Origin: an uncultured Pseudomonadota bacterium
GTDB taxonomy: Bacteria; Babelota; Babeliae; Babelales; JAUPTZ01
NCBI GenBank assembly: GCA_964429275.1
Contig: CAYSBJ010000001.1
Span: forward strand, 265,776 to 329,775
Reading direction: 5' to 3'
Length of the DNA stretch: 64,000 nucleotides
Shown here: positions 25,886-58,205 of the stretch, piece by piece
How positions within the stretch are numbered: position 1 is the first letter of the stretch
Layout: each line of letters begins with the position of its first letter
Position numbers and translations under genes: made by a program
Notes under the pieces: model-generated
What the model was told of the DNA's origin: nothing
Database searches by the model: none
The model's input: the letters and a program-made list of their open reading frames with translations, nothing else

Positions 25886-25975
25886 GGAGAGATGGCTGAG
25901 TGGTTGAAAGCGCTCGTCTCGAAAGCGAGTATACCTTAACGGGTATCGTGGGTTCAAATCCCACTCTCTCCACCA
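25886..25975 (+). tRNA. tRNA-Ser(CGA)
   Basis: Acceptor GGAGAGA/TCTCTCC, anticodon arm ctcgt-ctCGAaa-gcgag, long variable arm, GGTTCAAATCC, encoded CCA; discriminator is A. Confidence 0.96.
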
Positions 25976-26155
25976 CCCTCCTTCGCCACACTGCCGGGCG
26001 TTAAGCCCGACAGGTGGTCTACGGCGTGGCGGGCCTTTTAAAGGCATGATACCGCCGTAGAACTAACCACCGGCAGTGTGCAGCGTAAGCGCTGGGCGCT
26101 AGAGCGATGCGAAGAGGTTGTCACGCCATAGTCCTTGACGAGGCGACAGCGGACT
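25976..26155 (+). repeat. Structured tRNA-3'-associated element, copy 1
   Basis: Multi-stem element homologous to 50319-50490 (shared tgtcacgccatagtcc, ctacggc/gccgtag, cagtgtg, gcgatgcga, ggcgac.gcggact). Confidence 0.8.
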
Positions 26156-37493: not shown

Positions 37494-37568
37494 GCGGGAA
37501 TAGCTCAGTGGTAGAGCACTGCCTTGCCATGGCAGGGGTCGCGAGTTCGAATCTCGTTTCCCGCTCCA
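37494..37568 (+). tRNA. tRNA-Gly(GCC)
   Basis: Acceptor GCGGGAA/TTCCCGC, anticodon arm ctgcc-ttGCCat-ggcag, GTTCGAATC, U73 and encoded CCA. Confidence 0.97.
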
Positions 37569-37844
37569 TCCTTCGCTTTTGAGGCGCGGATGGTTCCACC
37601 GTTTCCTTTTATTTTTACTTAAAAAACCTTTGTTTGCGCATGTTTTCTAATTCTGTTAGAATCTAACGTAGCAGGTGGAAGACCATGTTTTCTTGCGGTC
37701 GTCACCTGCGACATGGCAAGCTAGTTGAGTTGCTGTTCGCCCGGTTCTGCGGATATTTTTTAATACCGGTAAATGAACACCTCAACACATGGGCGTTTCT
37801 CTAAGAAAACGACCCTCATTTATGATACATATGTAAGGCTATCA

Positions 37845-46973: not shown

Positions 46974-47774
46974 ATGAAAAATAACCTAAAAAAGTTGCTT
47001 GTATTAGCAACAGTTGCAACATTTGCAAATACTGTAGTGGTTGCTGGTAACGAAGGCGACAAAACAAGCTACTTTACTAAAGGTAAAGACTACGTCATGG
47101 ATCACAAGACCGGTACTATCCTTCTTGGCGCATCTGCAGTTGCTGGTATCACCGCTCTTGTTGTGAACCGTCGCAACAAGACTCGTGGTTTGACAAATAA
47201 CCAAGCAAAGTACGCTGCAATTACTGCTGCTGTTCTTGCTGCTCTTGGTGGCGCTGAGCTTGCATTTGACCTTACAGGCAAAGCTGGTTTTGGTGTAAAA
47301 AAGACTCAAGCTGCATTGAAATCTATTGAAGCTCTTGATAACGTAACTGTACATACAGCAAACGCTAAAGATAAAAAGAAAAAAGTAACTGCAGAACAAA
47401 AACAAAAGCTTGAAACAGCACGTACAAATGCTCTTCTTGCTCTTGCTACCGTTAAAGCTGAAGAAATAGCAAAAGAGAAACTTACTGCTGAGCAAACAGC
47501 GCTTCTTTTAGCTGCTTCCCTGAAGCTTTCTGATGCTGATCAATTGAAGGTTGCATCGCTTAAGACTTTGCTTGCTAAACCAGAAGTTGCTAAACCAGAA
47601 GTTGCTAAACCAGAAGTTGCTAAACCAGAAGCTCCTGAAGCTCCTAAAGCTAACCAAGCTCCAGCTCAAGCTCCTGAAGCTCCTAAGCAAGAACAATCTC
47701 AAGCTCCTGAAGCTCCTAAAGCTCCTAAGCAAGAACAATCTCAAGCTCCTGAAGCTCCTAAAGCTCAAGCTTAA
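46974..47774 (+). CDS. Exported Ala/Lys-rich protein with C-terminal Pro-rich tandem repeats
   Basis: Signal peptide, hydrophobic hairpin, (AKPEV)n and (APKQEQSQAPEAPK)2 tail. Confidence 0.8.
   Translation: MKNNLKKLLVLATVATFANTVVVAGNEGDKTSYFTKGKDYVMDHKTGTILLGASAVAGITALVVNRRNKTRGLTNNQAKYAAITAAVLAALGGAELAFDLTGKAGFGVKKTQAALKSIEALDNVTVHTANAKDKKKKVTAEQKQKLETARTNALLALATVKAEEIAKEKLTAEQTALLLAASLKLSDADQLKVASLKTLLAKPEVAKPEVAKPEVAKPEAPEAPKANQAPAQAPEAPKQEQSQAPEAPKAPKQEQSQAPEAPKAQA
47574..47762 (+). repeat. Coding tandem repeats (15 bp x ~4; 42 bp x 2)
   Basis: gctaaaccagaagtt at 47574, 47589 and 47604 plus a variant at 47619; a 42-bp unit at 47679-47720 and 47721-47762. Confidence 0.9.
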
Positions 47775-48610: not shown

Positions 48611-48932
48611 CTCTGAGAGCGAAGCAGAGCGCGAGAGCAAGGCTTTTTTGATGTACTAACCAATTCAAAGGTTATTTTGCGGCGCTCAAAAGGCCCCCCG
48701 CTCGGCTTCCGACTTTTTTGTCTCGCTTAGACAGCCCGTTTGGGGCTGCTCGACAAAAACCGTAGTCGCCTCGAAGGGGCCATTTTCCCTTTGCAAACCT
48801 GACTTGGAAAGTATCTAGATTTTGTATCTGCGAGAAATCGGGCCGCAGTTGCTCCAAGGAGCGAGTTCGGCTTTTTGCGTAGCAAAAACGCATGTTTGAG
48901 CGGGAGGGGTAATTCTGGACGAGCGCAGCAGC

Positions 48933-49848: not shown

Positions 49849-50318
49849 GGGGGCGTTTTTGGTTTCGACGTGTTACATACGGCTATGAACGCATGCCGAG
49901 TTTGGCTCCGGAACTCGTAAAAAAAAGGTGCAAATCAATAAATGCAGAATCTAACGGTTCTGTGAATACATCTTACAACTTGATGAATGCTTACAAGCCT
50001 GTGACCCTTGGTCACGTGTTTGCTGGCTTTAACGCTGCTGGCAGCTTTGCTGCTGTTGCTGCGTAGTCGTCAACTAGTTGATGCTATTCATCTTGTAAAT
50101 AGGGCCCCGTCTATCTGGCTCTCTTACTCGTATTACCCATGATAGAATCGTGTCACAAGGTTTTTTAGTTGTGTACTGACGCGATATACAAAACTAACCC
50201 GTCTTCGTGGCACTGTCTGCGATGCTTTGAAGATGTGGTAAAAATCGCAGTCCAGCATGGAGTTTGCTTGTAGTTACGTGTGATGCGGACATGGGTTCAA
50301 CTCCCATCGCCTCCACCA
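49849..50318 (+). ncRNA. ssrA: tmRNA (470 nt); tag ORF 49944-50066
   Basis: 5' GGGGGCG...GGTTTCGAC pairs with 3' CGCCTCC-ACCA with a G3-U pair; T-arm GGGTTCAACTCCC; ...ATAAAT-GCA resume site; the tag ends FAAVAA*. Confidence 0.93.
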
Positions 50319-50490
50319 CTCGCCTTCGCACACGCTGCGTGCGACAAAGCGCACGAGGTGTGACTACGGCATAGCGGGGCCTTCAAAGGCACCACAAGCC
50401 GTAGTATCACCGTCAGTGTGTAACGCAGCCCGCTAGGGCAAGTGCGATGCGAGTGTCACGCCATAGTCCCCGTAAGGGCGACGGCGGACT
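50319..50490 (+). repeat. Structured tRNA-3'-associated element, copy 2
   Basis: Homolog of 25976-26155 with the same helix order and compensatory changes. Confidence 0.8.
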
Positions 50491-52828: not shown

Positions 52829-55800
52829 CGGTTGCTTTTAAGTTCGTAATAGTGCTGTTGCGCGCCGTCAAGGTTGCGATTGCTTGTTTTGCATAGGCAG
52901 CGGCGCTCTCTATGGTTGCTTTTGCTTTGAGGGCGCTCTTCTGGTCTTTAAACGGCGGATTCTCTTTTGACACCGCGCTCAGCGTATTATTTATTTTATT
53001 TAATAGATCACCAATGGAACTCAAGAGTGATGATGCACTTGTTCGTGATGAGCCAGTGGCTTTTCCGGCAATCGTTTTGAGGGTTTCTATTGCTGCTGTC
53101 GCTTGTGTCTGTGCTGAGGTCAGGAAGTTAACGACAGCTGTTTTTTCGGTAGTAAGTTTTTCATTTAGACTATCAAGCGGCGATTTTTGTGCGACACTGG
53201 TTGTTGGTGCTTGAGCACTTTTCGACTGGGTTGCAGTATTGATTGCCGATTGGAGGGCTGCAATGGCATTTATCGTTGCGGTATTGGTGCTAGCGATGTT
53301 ATTGCTTGTACTGATTGCGACAATTGCGTTCGCGCACATGGTGAATGCATCTTTAACGGTGGTGTACGTTTGAGTAGATGTTGGGAGTGCTTTAAGTGCA
53401 GTATTTATATAGGTCAAGTTTGGACCAGTACCAGGAGCTGTTGCGCCATTAGTGCCAGGACTGTTTTGCAGCGCATTTGCTTGCTTAATTAGATCTGCCT
53501 TGTTGCCGACGGTTGAAGGTAAATTATTTGCAGCAGTTATCGCTGCTTGTGCATTAGTATCGGCGGTTGTGGCGTCTGGCAGTGTCTTGTTTAATGTAGT
53601 TGTTGCATTTTTGATTGCTTGATTAGCGATCGCATTGATTGCTGCCATTAAATTCGTAGTTATACGGCCGCTTAGGGTGTCAAGAAGGGTGTGGGCAGCC
53701 GTTTGGGCAGTTTGTGCATCACTTGTCGTAGCATAGGTGGTTGGCCTGGTTGCTGGTATCGTTGGTGCAAGTGCGGTAATTGCGTTAATAATTGACTGAG
53801 TACCAGTTTTTGAATCGGTTTGTAGACTCTTGTCGCTTGCGTCTCCTATGACTTTTTGTGCTATCAAGTCGGTGCATGCTGCCCAGGTGAGGAGTGCGGT
53901 ATATGCATTCATTGCTGCGTTAACGGTACACAGAGCGGCATTAGTAACAGTGCTGATTCCGCCCGTTATACTCAACTGTTGGGCAAGATTTTTTAGCTTG
54001 GTAGTGCCATACAGGGCATTTGTCTGTAGATCGCTTACCGCAGCTGGTGTGAGTAAGATTGCTGTTCCGTTAATAGTAGAGGTCGCCGTAGTGATCCCTG
54101 CCGTTGCCAGCGCTCCCACCGCAGCAAGAGCATTGCTTATACAGACGTCTGCCGCTGTTAGATCGGATGCAACACCGCTACTTGCAGTGGAGCCTTGTAT
54201 AGAGGTGAGTATGTTTTCGTTTGCGGTCTGTAGGTTTTGGAGTATTGTTGCATTATTACTTTGTTTGGTAGTGAAGAGTGCCGTAAGTACTGATTCGGCT
54301 TTAGTTTGGGCTGCCTGTGCGTCGCTTGTTGCCGTGTAAGTGGTTGGCGTTGGCCTCGTGGATGGCAAGGTTTTCATCTGCGCAAGGATGAGACCAAGCA
54401 AGGTCTGTGTGCCGGTGTTTGGATCGCTTTGAAGGGTTGTTGTACCAATTTTTTGTGCTTGAAGATCAAGGCACTCTGCCCAAGTTAATGCTGCCGTGTA
54501 GGCACTGATTGCGGCATTTACGCTGTAGGAAGCGGCAGCAGCGACGGTTGTAGCCGCTTTTACGGCCGTGGTAAGAGCAGCTATCCCTATTGTTGAGTCG
54601 TTTTGCAGTGTGGCTGCAACTGAAGCGAGCGAGGCTTGAGTAAGCGGTGTTGCAGTGCCATTCAGTGTTACGCTTCCGCCAGTGATGTTATTTGTTTGCA
54701 GAGAATCTGTCGCTGCTTTGGCGCCGGCGATGAGTGTTGGAATGTTTGTATTAGTTGTATTAGCTACGGCTGCGGAAAGGAAGCTGCTTGCTTGAATAGC
54801 GTTGCTGACTGCAGTGTCGGCGGCTTGTAAATTTTGGAGCGAGGTAGAGCCGTTTGGCTGTTTGGTTGTAAGAAGGAAGGAGAGGAAGGCTTCCGCTTTT
54901 GTTTGTGCTGCGCGAGCATCTGCGACCGTTGTGTACGTGGTTGGTGTTGGTCGGGTTGTTGGCAGAGCGGTTCGTTGTTCAAAAATACGGTCGAGGAGGA
55001 CTTGGGTGCCTGTATCTGGATTATTCTGAAGTGTCTTTGCGCCAATTTTTTGTGCTTGAAGATCAAGGCACTCTGCCCAAGTTAATGCTGCCGTGTAGGC
55101 ACTGATTGCGGCATTTACGCTGTAGGAAGCGGCAGCAGCGACGGTTGTAGCCGCTTTTACGGCCGTGGTAAGAGCAGCTATCCCTATTGTTGAGTCGTTT
55201 TGCAGTGTGGCTGCAACTGAAGCGAGCGAGGCTTGAGTAAGCGGTGTTGCAGTGCCATTCAGTGTTACGCTTCCGCCAGTGATGTTATTTGTTTGCAGAG
55301 AATCTGTCGCTGCTTTGGCGCCGGCGATGAGTGTTGGAATGTTTGTATTAGTTGTATTAGCTACGGCTGCGGAAAGGAAGCTGCTTGCTTGAATAGCGTT
55401 GCTGACTGCAGTGTCGGCGGCTTGTAAATTTTGGAGCGAGGTAGAGCCGTTTGGCTGTTTGGTTGTAAGAAGGAAGGAGAGGAAGGCTTCCGCTTTTGTT
55501 TGTGCTGCGCGAGCATCTGCGACCGTTGTGTACGTGGTTGGTGTTGGTCGGGTTGTTGGCAGAGCGGTTCGTTGTTCAAAAATACGGTCGAGGAGGACTT
55601 GGGTGCCTGTATCTGGATTATTCTGAAGTGTCTTTGCGCCAATTTTTTGTGCTTGAAGATCAAGGCATTCTGCCCAAGCTAATGCTGCCGTGTAGGCACT
55701 GATTGCGGCATTCACGCTGTAGGAAGCGGCAGCAGCGACGGTTGTAGCAGCTTTTACGGCTGTGGTAAGAGCAGCTATTCCTATTGTTGAGTCGTTTTGA

Positions 55801-58205
55801 AGTGCAGCGATAGTTGAGGCTAATGTAGCTTGCGTGAGTGGTGTTGGCGTACCGCTGAGAGAGATAGTGCCGCTGGTGATACCGCTTGTTTGAAGAAGAC
55901 TAGTTGCAGTGGTTGCGCCAGTTATAAGTGTTGGAATACTGGAATTTGTTACATTACTTATAGCCATAGTAAGGAGGTTGCTTGTTTGCATACTGCTTGC
56001 AATAAGCGTGTCGGCAGCCTGCAAGTTTTGAAGTAATGTAGAGCCGTTTGCTTGTTTGGTTATACAGAAAGCAGTAAGTAGTTTTTCGGCCATTGTTTGT
56101 GCTGTTTGAGCATTGCTTAGGGATGTATAGGTTGTTGCTGTTGGACGCGTGGTTGGTATGTTGCTTGCTTGGGTAAGAATAAAACTAAGCAGGTTTTGAG
56201 TGCCGGTGTTTGGATCGCTTTGAAGGGTTGTTGTACCAATTTTTTGTGCTTGAAGATCAAGGCACTCTGCCCAAGTTAATGCAGCGTTATATGCGTTTAT
56301 AGCAGCATTTATACTGCACGTTGCTGCGGTTATGTATGAGGTAGAAGTTTGGGGGCTTATTGCTTTTTGCGCATTTGCAAGCGCAATAAGGACATTCGGG
56401 CTATACGAGTTGTTGTTTTGTAAGTCGTTTAGAATTGTACTGAGACTATTTTGTGTTACAGAGGTTTGTGTATTTTGAATTGAAATAGTGCCTTGAGAAA
56501 TAGAGTAGATGGAAAGGTTGTTTACTGCACCCACAGCTCCGTTAATGAGTGCCGCAATGCCTGGAAGAGATACGTCATTTACTGCATTTGTAGTCACCGC
56601 GGTTGCCATGTCTTGTGGTAAGGTGAAAGTCGCGTCTCGCACGATAAATGAGGTTAAATTTGATGTGCGAAAACCAATAGCTGTAAAGCCGGTAAAATCA
56701 GGATTTTTGAGGTAGTTCCAGAGTGCGGTAGCTATGTTGTCAATGGTGCCAGTTCGGGGATTACCATTTGCGCTGTTCTGATCTGATAGCATGACCAAGA
56801 GAGTCGGTATTTTTGTTTTTGGATCGAGATAGGAGAGGCTTATTGATAGGCTAGGATTAGGCGATTGGGAAAGGGTTGCAGTAAGAGTGTAGGTGATGTT
56901 GCTGCCGCGTTTTCCGGGAATACGTAAGGTCGTTGAAGGGCTTGCGGGATTTGTGTTAGTCGTAAAAGGAGTTGCTCCTCGTTGGAATCCGCTCCATCCT
57001 GTGCACCAGCCTTCAGGATGATTGCAGGCCTCGTAACGTATAGCTATTGATTGGTCTCCATTAGTTCCATCAGGAGCTTCTTTAGGCCCTCCGTTTTGGC
57101 CGTCTGCTCCGCCTATAAGGAATTCTATGATAGCGCCTAAACTTGATGACACTCCCCCATTCGTCACTGATGAGCAGTAGAGCCCTGGTTTTCCTTGACC
57201 ACTTGCCATACCTGTATTGTAGTTTGAGCTATAGAGTCCTATGACGAAATCATGTTCTGGGTTTGCGGTAAAGGTGGCACTGAATGATTTTGCAAAAGCA
57301 GGATCAATATCAATTTTGTAGTTGTTGCTCGGCATAAACCCCCATGGGTACACTTTTGCATTAACAACATTTTGCGTTGATATGGCGCTGATATTGCTAA
57401 TGTTGTAGGTAGTGCCATTGATGGTACGAAAACTGACCTTGTCAAAACCGGGGAATGTTCCCGCGGCAAGTTTATTTCGGGTGAAAAAAGCATCTTCGCG
57501 TATATTATCGTTGCTTGCTCGAATCAGAAGCTCACGAAGGCCAGTTGTGGTATTTAGGTATTCTACCGTTATGTGTATTTGCTTTTCTGCTGCATCTAGA
57601 TCAAGAGAGACAAAATAGGTTGTTGTTCCATCATTATTTTGCGGCGTGGGAAGTTTATACAGTGGAGAGGGGGTTGGATTGCCGGATCCGAGACTTGTCA
57701 TTGTGTAGGTAGTGTTGTTTATTGTCATATCGTATGCTATTTGAGCACCATCAGAGCCGACGCTCAGTCCTAAGCGGAGTTCGATTACTGCCCCCAGCGA
57801 GTTGTCTGTTGCACCAAAGGCAGCTTGGTTTGGGTTTAATTGTCCTGCCGGTACGGTATATGTAGAGCAGTAGAATCCTATAACAAGATCGCTTTTTGCA
57901 TTTGAATCGAAGCTAAAGGCAAAGTTTTTTGCTTTATCTGTTGGGATAGTTATCACTGGTAGTTGATTTGGAGTTGTTCCTGCCCAGGAATAAGAAGAAT
58001 CAGAAGGGTTGTTCGGGCTAGTGGCAGTGGCTGTAGAGGTGGCGGTAGAAGCCGTACTAAAACCAGAAGAAGGATTGTTATTATTAAGGAAAGCGCCATA
58101 TGAGTACGGCACGCCATAGGAGTACGCGGAGCTGGTTGAGGCAATAATAGATAAGACAAGCGATAAGACGATGATTGGTTTTTTGGAGTGTAATAGTGTA
58201 TCCAT
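52818..58205 (-). CDS. Giant exported Ala/Thr-rich repeat protein (1795 aa)
   Basis: Signal peptide, two beta-rich N-terminal domains, ~199-aa helical repeats (AY.AAL.WA.C.DL.AQK), and a C-terminal domain shared with the neighbouring gene. Confidence 0.85.
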   Translation of the reverse strand: MDTLLHSKKPIIVLSLVLSIIASTSSAYSYGVPYSYGAFLNNNNPSSGFSTASTATSTATATSPNNPSDSSYSWAGTTPNQLPVITIPTDKAKNFAFSFDSNAKSDLVIGFYCSTYTVPAGQLNPNQAAFGATDNSLGAVIELRLGLSVGSDGAQIAYDMTINNTTYTMTSLGSGNPTPSPLYKLPTPQNNDGTTTYFVSLDLDAAEKQIHITVEYLNTTTGLRELLIRASNDNIREDAFFTRNKLAAGTFPGFDKVSFRTINGTTYNISNISAISTQNVVNAKVYPWGFMPSNNYKIDIDPAFAKSFSATFTANPEHDFVIGLYSSNYNTGMASGQGKPGLYCSSVTNGGVSSSLGAIIEFLIGGADGQNGGPKEAPDGTNGDQSIAIRYEACNHPEGWCTGWSGFQRGATPFTTNTNPASPSTTLRIPGKRGSNITYTLTATLSQSPNPSLSISLSYLDPKTKIPTLLVMLSDQNSANGNPRTGTIDNIATALWNYLKNPDFTGFTAIGFRTSNLTSFIVRDATFTLPQDMATAVTTNAVNDVSLPGIAALINGAVGAVNNLSIYSISQGTISIQNTQTSVTQNSLSTILNDLQNNNSYSPNVLIALANAQKAISPQTSTSYITAATCSINAAINAYNAALTWAECLDLQAQKIGTTTLQSDPNTGTQNLLSFILTQASNIPTTRPTATTYTSLSNAQTAQTMAEKLLTAFCITKQANGSTLLQNLQAADTLIASSMQTSNLLTMAISNVTNSSIPTLITGATTATSLLQTSGITSGTISLSGTPTPLTQATLASTIAALQNDSTIGIAALTTAVKAATTVAAAASYSVNAAISAYTAALAWAECLDLQAQKIGAKTLQNNPDTGTQVLLDRIFEQRTALPTTRPTPTTYTTVADARAAQTKAEAFLSFLLTTKQPNGSTSLQNLQAADTAVSNAIQASSFLSAAVANTTNTNIPTLIAGAKAATDSLQTNNITGGSVTLNGTATPLTQASLASVAATLQNDSTIGIAALTTAVKAATTVAAAASYSVNAAISAYTAALTWAECLDLQAQKIGAKTLQNNPDTGTQVLLDRIFEQRTALPTTRPTPTTYTTVADARAAQTKAEAFLSFLLTTKQPNGSTSLQNLQAADTAVSNAIQASSFLSAAVANTTNTNIPTLIAGAKAATDSLQTNNITGGSVTLNGTATPLTQASLASVAATLQNDSTIGIAALTTAVKAATTVAAAASYSVNAAISAYTAALTWAECLDLQAQKIGTTTLQSDPNTGTQTLLGLILAQMKTLPSTRPTPTTYTATSDAQAAQTKAESVLTALFTTKQSNNATILQNLQTANENILTSIQGSTASSGVASDLTAADVCISNALAAVGALATAGITTATSTINGTAILLTPAAVSDLQTNALYGTTKLKNLAQQLSITGGISTVTNAALCTVNAAMNAYTALLTWAACTDLIAQKVIGDASDKSLQTDSKTGTQSIINAITALAPTIPATRPTTYATTSDAQTAQTAAHTLLDTLSGRITTNLMAAINAIANQAIKNATTTLNKTLPDATTADTNAQAAITAANNLPSTVGNKADLIKQANALQNSPGTNGATAPGTGPNLTYINTALKALPTSTQTYTTVKDAFTMCANAIVAISTSNNIASTNTATINAIAALQSAINTATQSKSAQAPTTSVAQKSPLDSLNEKLTTEKTAVVNFLTSAQTQATAAIETLKTIAGKATGSSRTSASSLLSSIGDLLNKINNTLSAVSKENPPFKDQKSALKAKATIESAAAYAKQAIATLTARNSTITNLKATVSA
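54445..56282. repeat. 597-bp coding tandem repeat array
   Basis: ccaattttttgtgcttgaagatcaaggca recurs at 54445, 55042, 55639 and 56236 (exact 597 spacing). The first two units appear identical. Confidence 0.92.

Follow-up and report, generated by a model that had tools for sequence, protein, structure and literature searches.

Trailer Helices at tmRNA and tRNA 3' Ends as Probable Copies of a Palindromic Repeat Linked to a Small GIY-YIG Nuclease

1. Introduction

Behind the tmRNA gene of an uncultured bacterium lies a long trailer helix that takes in the last bases of the encoded CCA end, and the question raised by this locus is whether such pairing serves the maturation of the RNA or has another origin. 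The locus is part of a window of 64,000 nucleotides (the whole stretch of DNA analysed here) from a genome of 1.2 Mb that is 97.95% complete. A first-pass annotation had proposed that trailer helices invade the CCA of tmRNA, tRNA-Ser, and tRNA-Gly, that the 3' end shared by the first two reflects a target-site preference, and that pairing which follows the sequence of each host suggests selection on CCA sequestration or 3' maturation. The analysis presented here argues, with a probability of about 0.68, that the trailers belong to a palindromic repeat located at tRNA and tmRNA 3' ends, as non-autonomous copies spread by a small nuclease acting on single-stranded DNA. The CCA pairing would likely represent the outer stem of the nuclease's DNA hairpin, and not a tRNA-maturation device.

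2. Trailer Copies and Their Host Genes in the Window

The tmRNA gene that hosts copy 2 (49849..50318, forward strand as for all features of the window given here; ARAGORN; Rfam RF00023, 123 bits) ends CTCCACCA and is followed by a full-length trailer at 50319..50490, formed by a long arm with nested hairpins (50319-50455) and a distal hairpin module. In the junction helix, the left side at 50317..50323 (CACTCGC) comprises tmRNA C75-A76 plus trailer bases 1-5, and the right side at 50449..50455 (GCGAGTG) carries a terminal TG that faces the CA. The distal module (CGCC-ATAG-hairpin-CGAC-GGCGG, 50456..50490) is the basic module of the family in inverted orientation. Copy 1, also full-length, occupies 25976..26155 behind the tRNA-Ser(CGA) gene (25886..25975, A73; ARAGORN and Rfam); its junction helix, read from the sequence, is imperfect (CACCCTCCTTCGC at 25974-25986 with GCGAAGAGGTTG at 26109-26120), and its distal module lies at 26121-26155. 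A short copy follows the tRNA-Gly(GCC) gene (37494..37568, U73; ARAGORN and Rfam) as a proximal hairpin of the form CCA-TCC-TTCG-C-loop-G-CGC-GGA-TGG at 37566..37593, in which the tRNA-Gly CCA forms the outer stem and the internal loop is decayed. About 52 bases 3' of this CCA (37569..37620) are missing at the empty site of the congeners G001 and G002.

All strings quoted in the first-pass annotation were found in their places, including the T-arm/CTCCACCA 3' end common to the tRNA-Ser and tmRNA genes. Copies 1 and 2 are 69% identical, and the tmRNA copy is 91% identical to a copy behind tRNA-Arg(TCT) that precedes a GIY-YIG gene on another contig. The tRNA-Gly hairpin corresponds to the short proximal half of the element, and the long-range arm behind tRNA-Ser and tmRNA to another half. 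At gathering score, Rfam finds the tmRNA and four tRNAs only in the window, and the trailers match no family; moreover, none of the three window copies is accompanied by a duplicated host 3' end.

Inside the tmRNA gene, at 49941-50066, a 41-codon frame ending in FAAVAA-stop looks like a real, unusually long tag peptide, and the tag reported by ARAGORN (DAIHL...) is in a different frame. Elsewhere in the window, a 270-aa ORF contains short peptide repeats (47572-47765), and a 1795-aa ORF contains four tandem repeats of 597 bp (54223-56313). The small contigs C4-C7 of the host genome have a G+C content of 60-70% vs. 46% in the main contigs and are probably contamination.

3. Predicted Folding and Pairing of the CCA End

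Both full-length trailers are predicted to fold more stably than their shuffled versions (z -5.6 for copy 2 and -3.6 for copy 1, as-good shuffles being 0/200 for each). When pairing probabilities were computed with the acceptor strand blocked, C75 and A76 of the tmRNA were predicted to be paired with its trailer at 0.97 and 0.99, C74 remaining unpaired, and all three bases of the tRNA-Gly CCA at 0.96-0.98, whereas C75 and A76 of tRNA-Ser reached only 0.20 and 0.16. The proposed invasion of the CCA stands for tRNA-Gly (the whole triplet) and, restricted to C75-A76, for tmRNA, and is weak for tRNA-Ser. The long helix stops at C75-A76 and never includes C74: among 11 copies with a distal arm, picked by hand from the host genome, 10 have an arm that closes with TG and is followed by T. 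Several trailer-free ends, e.g., Thr-GGT, Trp, and Asn, reach high values here as well, so that predicted CCA pairing is nonspecific and folding alone proves little.

Among 96 leaders, of which 75 could be parsed for the proximal hairpin and 40 for the distal arm, TGG faces CCA in 65/75 proximal hairpins and TG faces CA in 37/40 distal arms; CCA pairing is thus kept in other copies and across phyla. The CCA-adjacent strand has two mutually exclusive partners, one near and one far, each of which covaries with it. The strong conservation of the TGG/TG partners and the stable RNA folds speak for a host-selected RNA trailer, whose hairpin would hide the precursor CCA and guard against over-trimming or time 3' maturation. 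This explanation is nevertheless unlikely, since the Ser copy hardly pairs and further observations described below (Sections 4, 6, 7, and 8) run against it.

4. Ends without a Normal CCA

In some lineages, a number of tRNA genes do not encode CCA. Where an end bears a leader and lacks CCA at positions 74-76, the partner triplet complements the bases present exactly in 13/17 cases, with 8 of the 17 having CCA at 71-73, where an alternative register is possible; TGG is the partner in none. The compensated triplets are CTC:GAG, TCC:GGA, CAC:GTG, TTC:GAA, CCC:GGG, and TCT:AGA. The remaining nine rows comprise seven perfect cases, one decayed, and one parsed at a nested hairpin. Shuffling gave a mean of 3.2 compensated ends, and 0/5000 shuffles attained 13, a test that, like the other shuffle tests, overstates significance because the sequences compared are kin and not independent. 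In genome G215, CTC-ended tRNAs carry the GAG type and CCA-ended ones the TGG type. Moreover, at 25 ends (30 matches, minus five with a normal CCA) the leader lies behind a CCA built of acceptor-stem bases, located at 71-73 in 21 of them, and TGG is retained in 19 of the 24 parsed; in RNA fold predictions for 14 of these ends, the acceptor stem wins in nine and the trailer in two.

Since the stem is kept with compensation at non-CCA ends, the element conserves a 6-bp stem and not a cover for the CCA. The apparent conserved feature is a six-pair stem that uses whichever bases lie at the junction, and selection on CCA sequestration, as first proposed, is not supported, given both the stem kept in places where no CCA is encoded and the empty sites of congeners. 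The persistence of the stem at such ends, or where the CCA belongs to the acceptor stem, equally counts against the host-selected RNA trailer. The suggestion that pairing tracks the host holds for bases 74-76 at the non-CCA ends and fails for the discriminator, as N73 is matched in 14/75 leaders vs. 16.4 in shuffles. Two further candidates were rejected: a retroelement primer-binding site, because pairing ends at three bases, and T-box-like sensing, because N73 is not tracked and the fourth base is C in 61/66. A general warning follows, namely that kept pairing with a tRNA CCA may not signal RNA-level control.

5. The Discriminator and the Shared 3' End

G73 is the textbook identity base of tRNA-Ser. 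The A73 of tRNA-Ser(CGA) in the window, present as reported, had therefore been read as unusual and possibly tied to the element. However, Ser ends with A73 occur in 121/151 genomes of the host phylum and with G73 in 40/151, and four of four Ser tRNAs of the host genome carry A73. Leaders follow 6/32 A73 and 9/33 G73 Ser ends (p 0.56), and 3/8 with U73. A73 in tRNA-Ser is thus normal for this phylum and unrelated to the trailer. Across the phylum, the Ser discriminator varies between A, G, and U, A being the most frequent. In E. coli, G73 is a Ser identity base of moderate weight and an antideterminant against LeuRS and TyrRS, according to passages of PMC9976931.

A target preference for the 3' end shared by the tmRNA and tRNA-Ser genes is not supported either. 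Full copies in the host genome are also located behind Leu, Arg, Phe, Tyr, and Cys genes with different 3' ends, and a near-identical tmRNA end occurs in 30 genomes, 15-19 of which are leader-free at this end, leaders being present in 11 (strict) to 15 (loose). A preference for particular discriminators was considered as well, given that leaders in the host genome follow 0/5 G73 vs. 15/32 other ends (about p 0.06), and was ruled out across loci (73/174 A73, 21/59 G73, and 13/28 U73; A vs. G, p 0.44).

6. The Repeat Family and Its Module

The leader pattern is found behind 15/37 tRNA/tmRNA ends of the host genome and behind none of the other 22, a patchiness that disfavours a trailer selected by the host for RNA maturation. 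In the host phylum, it gives 921 matches in 116/151 genomes, the reversed control giving one match; 35/151 genomes lack it. It is also present in 5/5 Acidobacteriota and Pseudomonadota genomes reached via the nuclease protein.

The basic module consists of three outer pairs and three arm pairs (a 6-bp stem), a four-base internal loop of the form TWCG/CTWC, and a free hairpin. In modules defined without fixing the loop, two pyrimidine mismatches occur at fixed places, T:C in 49/61 and C:T in 48/61. In a full element, this module adjoins the tRNA and an inverted one lies at the opposite end; the strand next to the tRNA has an additional long-range partner, and complete copies carry the nuclease gene past the inverted module. 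The opposite strand of the module reads GTAG/CGAA, and the imperfect hairpins form inverted doublets. A second CCA lies 4-5 nt past the TGG in 50/66 modules, and the sequence downstream is T-rich in 27.

Away from tRNA ends, 48 module copies were found in the loci, with CCC:GGG, TCC:GGA, and CCA:TGG as outer triplets five times each. At five places of the host genome (G000) away from tRNA ends, the doublet module is nested within unrelated hairpin repeats, namely GTCATTGCGAG-type (Ssn-like) hairpins (C1:48100-48400, C1:425050-425380, C1:508650-508950, C2:38300-38620, and C3:164100-164420; locus L002). This genome holds 54 copies of the GTCATTGCGAG-type hairpin start together with two Ssn-type genes. 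A second palindrome-rich repeat occupies 48620-48932 of the window, between an unidentified ORF and an rRNA dimethylase gene; it has six more partial copies in the genome, and BLAST shows no relation to the tRNA leader.

7. A Linked Small GIY-YIG Nuclease Gene

The host genome contains one intact gene for an 81-aa GIY-YIG protein (PF01541, E 4.8e-17), located behind the tRNA-Arg(TCT) copy on contig C2 (59471-59716, minus strand). The catalytic residues Y7, Y19, R29, H33, and E65 are invariant among 16 aligned relatives, and the protein model (pLDDT 92) has Slx1 as its nearest solved fold.

The linkage of this gene to tRNA ends was assessed by searches with the protein alone as query. In other phyla, 9/9 gene loci sit behind a tRNA and a leader, and among further loci of the host phylum a T-arm/CCA is found up to 500 nt upstream of the gene in 22/29. 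In metagenomes (80 loci, 14 of them excluded for a flank below 300 nt), a tRNA or tmRNA end lies up to 500 nt upstream in 47/66, 33 of the 47 matching the leader pattern, and 19/66 lack an upstream tRNA call. Where no CCA end lies upstream of the gene, Rfam, applied to seven such loci, finds tRNAs in two and nothing else. The nuclease had no match among 72,556 plasmids, and the four relatives found in viral contigs had no upstream tRNA call. Duplication of the host 3' end (at least 12 nt, within 400 nt) occurs in just 2/33 gene-bearing loci.

Several individual loci deviate from the common arrangement. At L108, L115, and L124, a duplicated tRNA 3' fragment lies past the nuclease gene, with the T-loop interrupted by the hairpin module, and at L125 the module is within a broken tRNA-Arg copy. 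At L118 (end at 1520, minus strand), L119 (1852, minus), and L122 (1970, minus), the leader and nuclease gene follow a sequence of about 80 nt that is conserved but not a tRNA and has a terminal hairpin and RCCA. This sequence has no Rfam match and no clear match in the host genome; possibly it represents a stable RNA not yet recognised as such, a tentative guess being 6S RNA.

The gene and the repeat also co-occur across genomes. Leaders are present in 89/91 gene-bearing genomes (E<=1e-10) vs. 27/60 gene-less ones, and with a looser cut-off in 92/98 vs. 24/53. The mean number of leaders is higher with the gene in 11/11 families that hold both kinds of genome, a difference attained in 0/10000 within-family permutations. 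This tight link with a DNA nuclease gene is a further point against the host-selected RNA trailer.

In the loci examined, the gene lies on the strand of the tRNA. An RNA switch or attenuator would fit this orientation, with read-through from the tRNA promoter controlling the nuclease gene via the alternative CCA-adjacent pairings and the gene-less copies being leftovers; it would also fit the two exclusive, covarying partners of one strand, and the second CCA past the TGG with its T-rich sequence, which resembles a weak terminator. This explanation leaves the gene-less copies at many tRNA ends, the nesting, and the fixed mismatches unaccounted for, and it is considered improbable as a full account, although such a switch can coexist with a hairpin spread by the nuclease.

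The repeats could instead be moved by IS200-type HUH transposases or Ssn-type nucleases, the small GIY-YIG gene being a passenger. Two IS200-type tnpA copies and the two Ssn-type genes are indeed available in the genome, the module nests within Ssn-type hairpins, and the GTAG at the hairpin foot of the inverted module recalls the REP guide sequences described in passages of PMC6006769. However, neither HUH (Y1) gene is flanked by the repeat: both tnpA genes have different terminal hairpins of their own and lie away from tRNAs, and the physical linkage of the repeat is with the small GIY-YIG gene. Furthermore, the tRNA-linked proteins form a long branch apart from the two Ssn-type genes (support 100/100), in a tree in which the two host-genome genes flanked by GTCATTGCGAG hairpins are taken as Ssn-type. 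Movement by these enzymes is accordingly the least probable of the explanations considered here and very unlikely. The IS200-type tnpA pair (L005 and L006) is near-identical in sequence and in one copy has a TGA within the match.

8. Turnover of the Trailers

At orthologous sites, the trailer differs and the RNA gene is unchanged. G001 and G002 have an empty Gly site, and at the tmRNA, Ser, and Arg sites of the congeners G003 and G004 the leaders are different, those of Ser being shorter; thus, copies have been gained or lost at the same tRNA among congeners. Such empty sites add to the case against a host-selected RNA trailer. Neither a joint skipping a trailer nor an empty allele was found in the contigs of three DNA runs and one RNA run. 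In a related strain, the contig matches up to 50318 precisely and no further, and RNA from a relative gave a contig that spans the tmRNA with no cover of the trailer; neither contig shows processing.

9. CCA Addition and RNA Maturation in the Host

No CCA-adding enzyme was found in the 98% complete host genome, either by profile or by tblastn with proteins of two relatives, nor by profile in the congener G003; the enzyme is present in 143/151 genomes of the phylum. Since the host genome appears to lack it, a protective RNA role of the trailer would be useful there. All 37 tRNA/tmRNA genes of this genome encode CCA, and its 15 leaders compare with a mean of about 6 across the phylum. The eight genomes without a match to the CCA enzyme, several of which are fragmented, average 9.6 leaders vs. 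5.9 elsewhere. The apparent lack of the enzyme in the host genome and G003, together with these averages, lends some weight to the host-selected RNA trailer, and leaders being common where the CCA enzyme exists takes weight from it. In the host genome and G003, both leader-rich and without a detectable CCA enzyme, a paired CCA could be useful as a side effect.

As for 3' processing, RNase Z has no match in the host genome and is above the family cut-off in 0/151 genomes, so that a link with this enzyme was rejected, and RNase III has no match in the host genome; matches exist for RNase PH, a PNPase-sized protein, and RNase E/G.

10. A Proposed Mechanism for the Nuclease-Spread Repeat

By analogy with known hairpin-directed enzymes, the nuclease would bind the mismatched hairpin on one DNA strand and nick the hairpin foot, and repair against an element-bearing strand would then insert or replace the trailer. 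The single intact gene behind tRNA-Arg(TCT) could act in trans on the gene-less copies. The fixed mismatches would allow the protein to distinguish the two strands, as suggested by REP and IS200/IS605 ends and by passages of PMC6006769. In the RNA, the trailer would be tolerated, host RNase E/G and RNase PH or PNPase cutting it off the precursor. Against this reading, a nuclease by itself supplies no strand transfer, a three-base match cannot explain the choice of tRNA ends, and leaders persist in the 27 of 60 genomes without the gene.

A more specific form of targeting is conceivable, in which the 81-residue nuclease, in the absence of any transposase or integrase, inserts the element where a guide triplet after the hairpin (TGG, GAG, GTG, or GAA) pairs with the triplet of the tRNA end. 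This is a tentative and rather doubtful proposal. If it were true, a three-base change would retarget the element, as guides do for the HUH enzyme of IS608. In a variant of this reading, the element would bring the triplet with it, rewriting or restoring the encoded CCA of the host tRNA. The natural non-CCA variants bear on whether three base pairs set the target, and the interest here would lie in a very small programmable ssDNA nuclease.

11. Comparison with Known Systems

Classical MITEs and tRNA-integrative elements differ from the present repeat in that duplication of a target or of the tRNA 3' end is mostly absent here (the 2/33 loci of Section 7). The T-box antiterminator shares with the trailer a UGG that pairs with the tRNA CCA, according to PMC7583486. 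However, UGGN of the T-box binds tRNA in trans and the trailer pairs in cis, its fourth base being C in the great majority of modules regardless of the discriminator; Rfam finds no T-box. SegB of phage T4, in the parts of PMC2330249 that deal with it, is likewise encoded by a free-standing GIY-YIG gene among tRNA genes and recognises a T-arm motif. Unlike the mechanism proposed here, SegB breaks both DNA strands at a site of 27 bp and homes from phage to phage, and those parts of the paper mention neither a hairpin repeat nor gene-less satellites; the nuclease described here amounts to a lone 81-aa domain encoded on bacterial chromosomes.

The REP/BIME-RAYT (TnpA-REP) and IS200/IS605 systems likewise have imperfect hairpins in inverted doublets, a GTAG foot, and non-autonomous spread (passages of PMC6006769 and PMC3733652), and in IS608 the same sources describe a cut site set by base pairing between guide and target. 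The enzyme in these systems is an HUH transposase, whereas a GIY-YIG nuclease is linked to the repeat here, and anchoring at stable-RNA ends, which characterises the present repeat, goes unmentioned in those passages.

The repeat and its nuclease also resemble the Ssn nucleases with their NTS/SRM hairpin repeats (Chenal et al. 2025, PMC11893778), where passages of the paper describe single-domain GIY-YIG proteins of 80-95 aa, a gene that adjoins hairpin repeats, and numerous gene-less repeats across the genome. There, SsnA leaves RNA alone and cleaves ssDNA, at a point a few bases upstream of its own hairpin. Nevertheless, the repeat at tRNA ends is a mismatched TWCG/CTWC module and that of Ssn is of the GTCATT type (passages of PMC11893778), and the published SRM motif matches 0/107 leaders, being itself insensitive (3 matches in the genome with 54 GTCATTGCGAG-type copies). 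Likewise, anchoring at tRNA/tmRNA 3' ends is found here, and the main text of PMC11893778 makes no mention of tRNA. The 81-aa protein, with Slx1 as its nearest fold, is on a branch separate from the Ssn-type genes of the same genome. No description of the present system was found in the literature covered, which took in few subscription journals.

The system would act like Ssn/SRM and REP/RAYT, yet it falls outside them by its repeat or by its enzyme. If the preferred reading, a repeat spread by the small nuclease, is right, this would be an overlooked selfish system in many bacteria, in which a minimal nuclease repeatedly rewrites the DNA that immediately follows the CCA in tRNA and tmRNA genes. 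It would also carry the Ssn idea over to a second clade, one that is Slx1-like and has a fixed target at essential genes.
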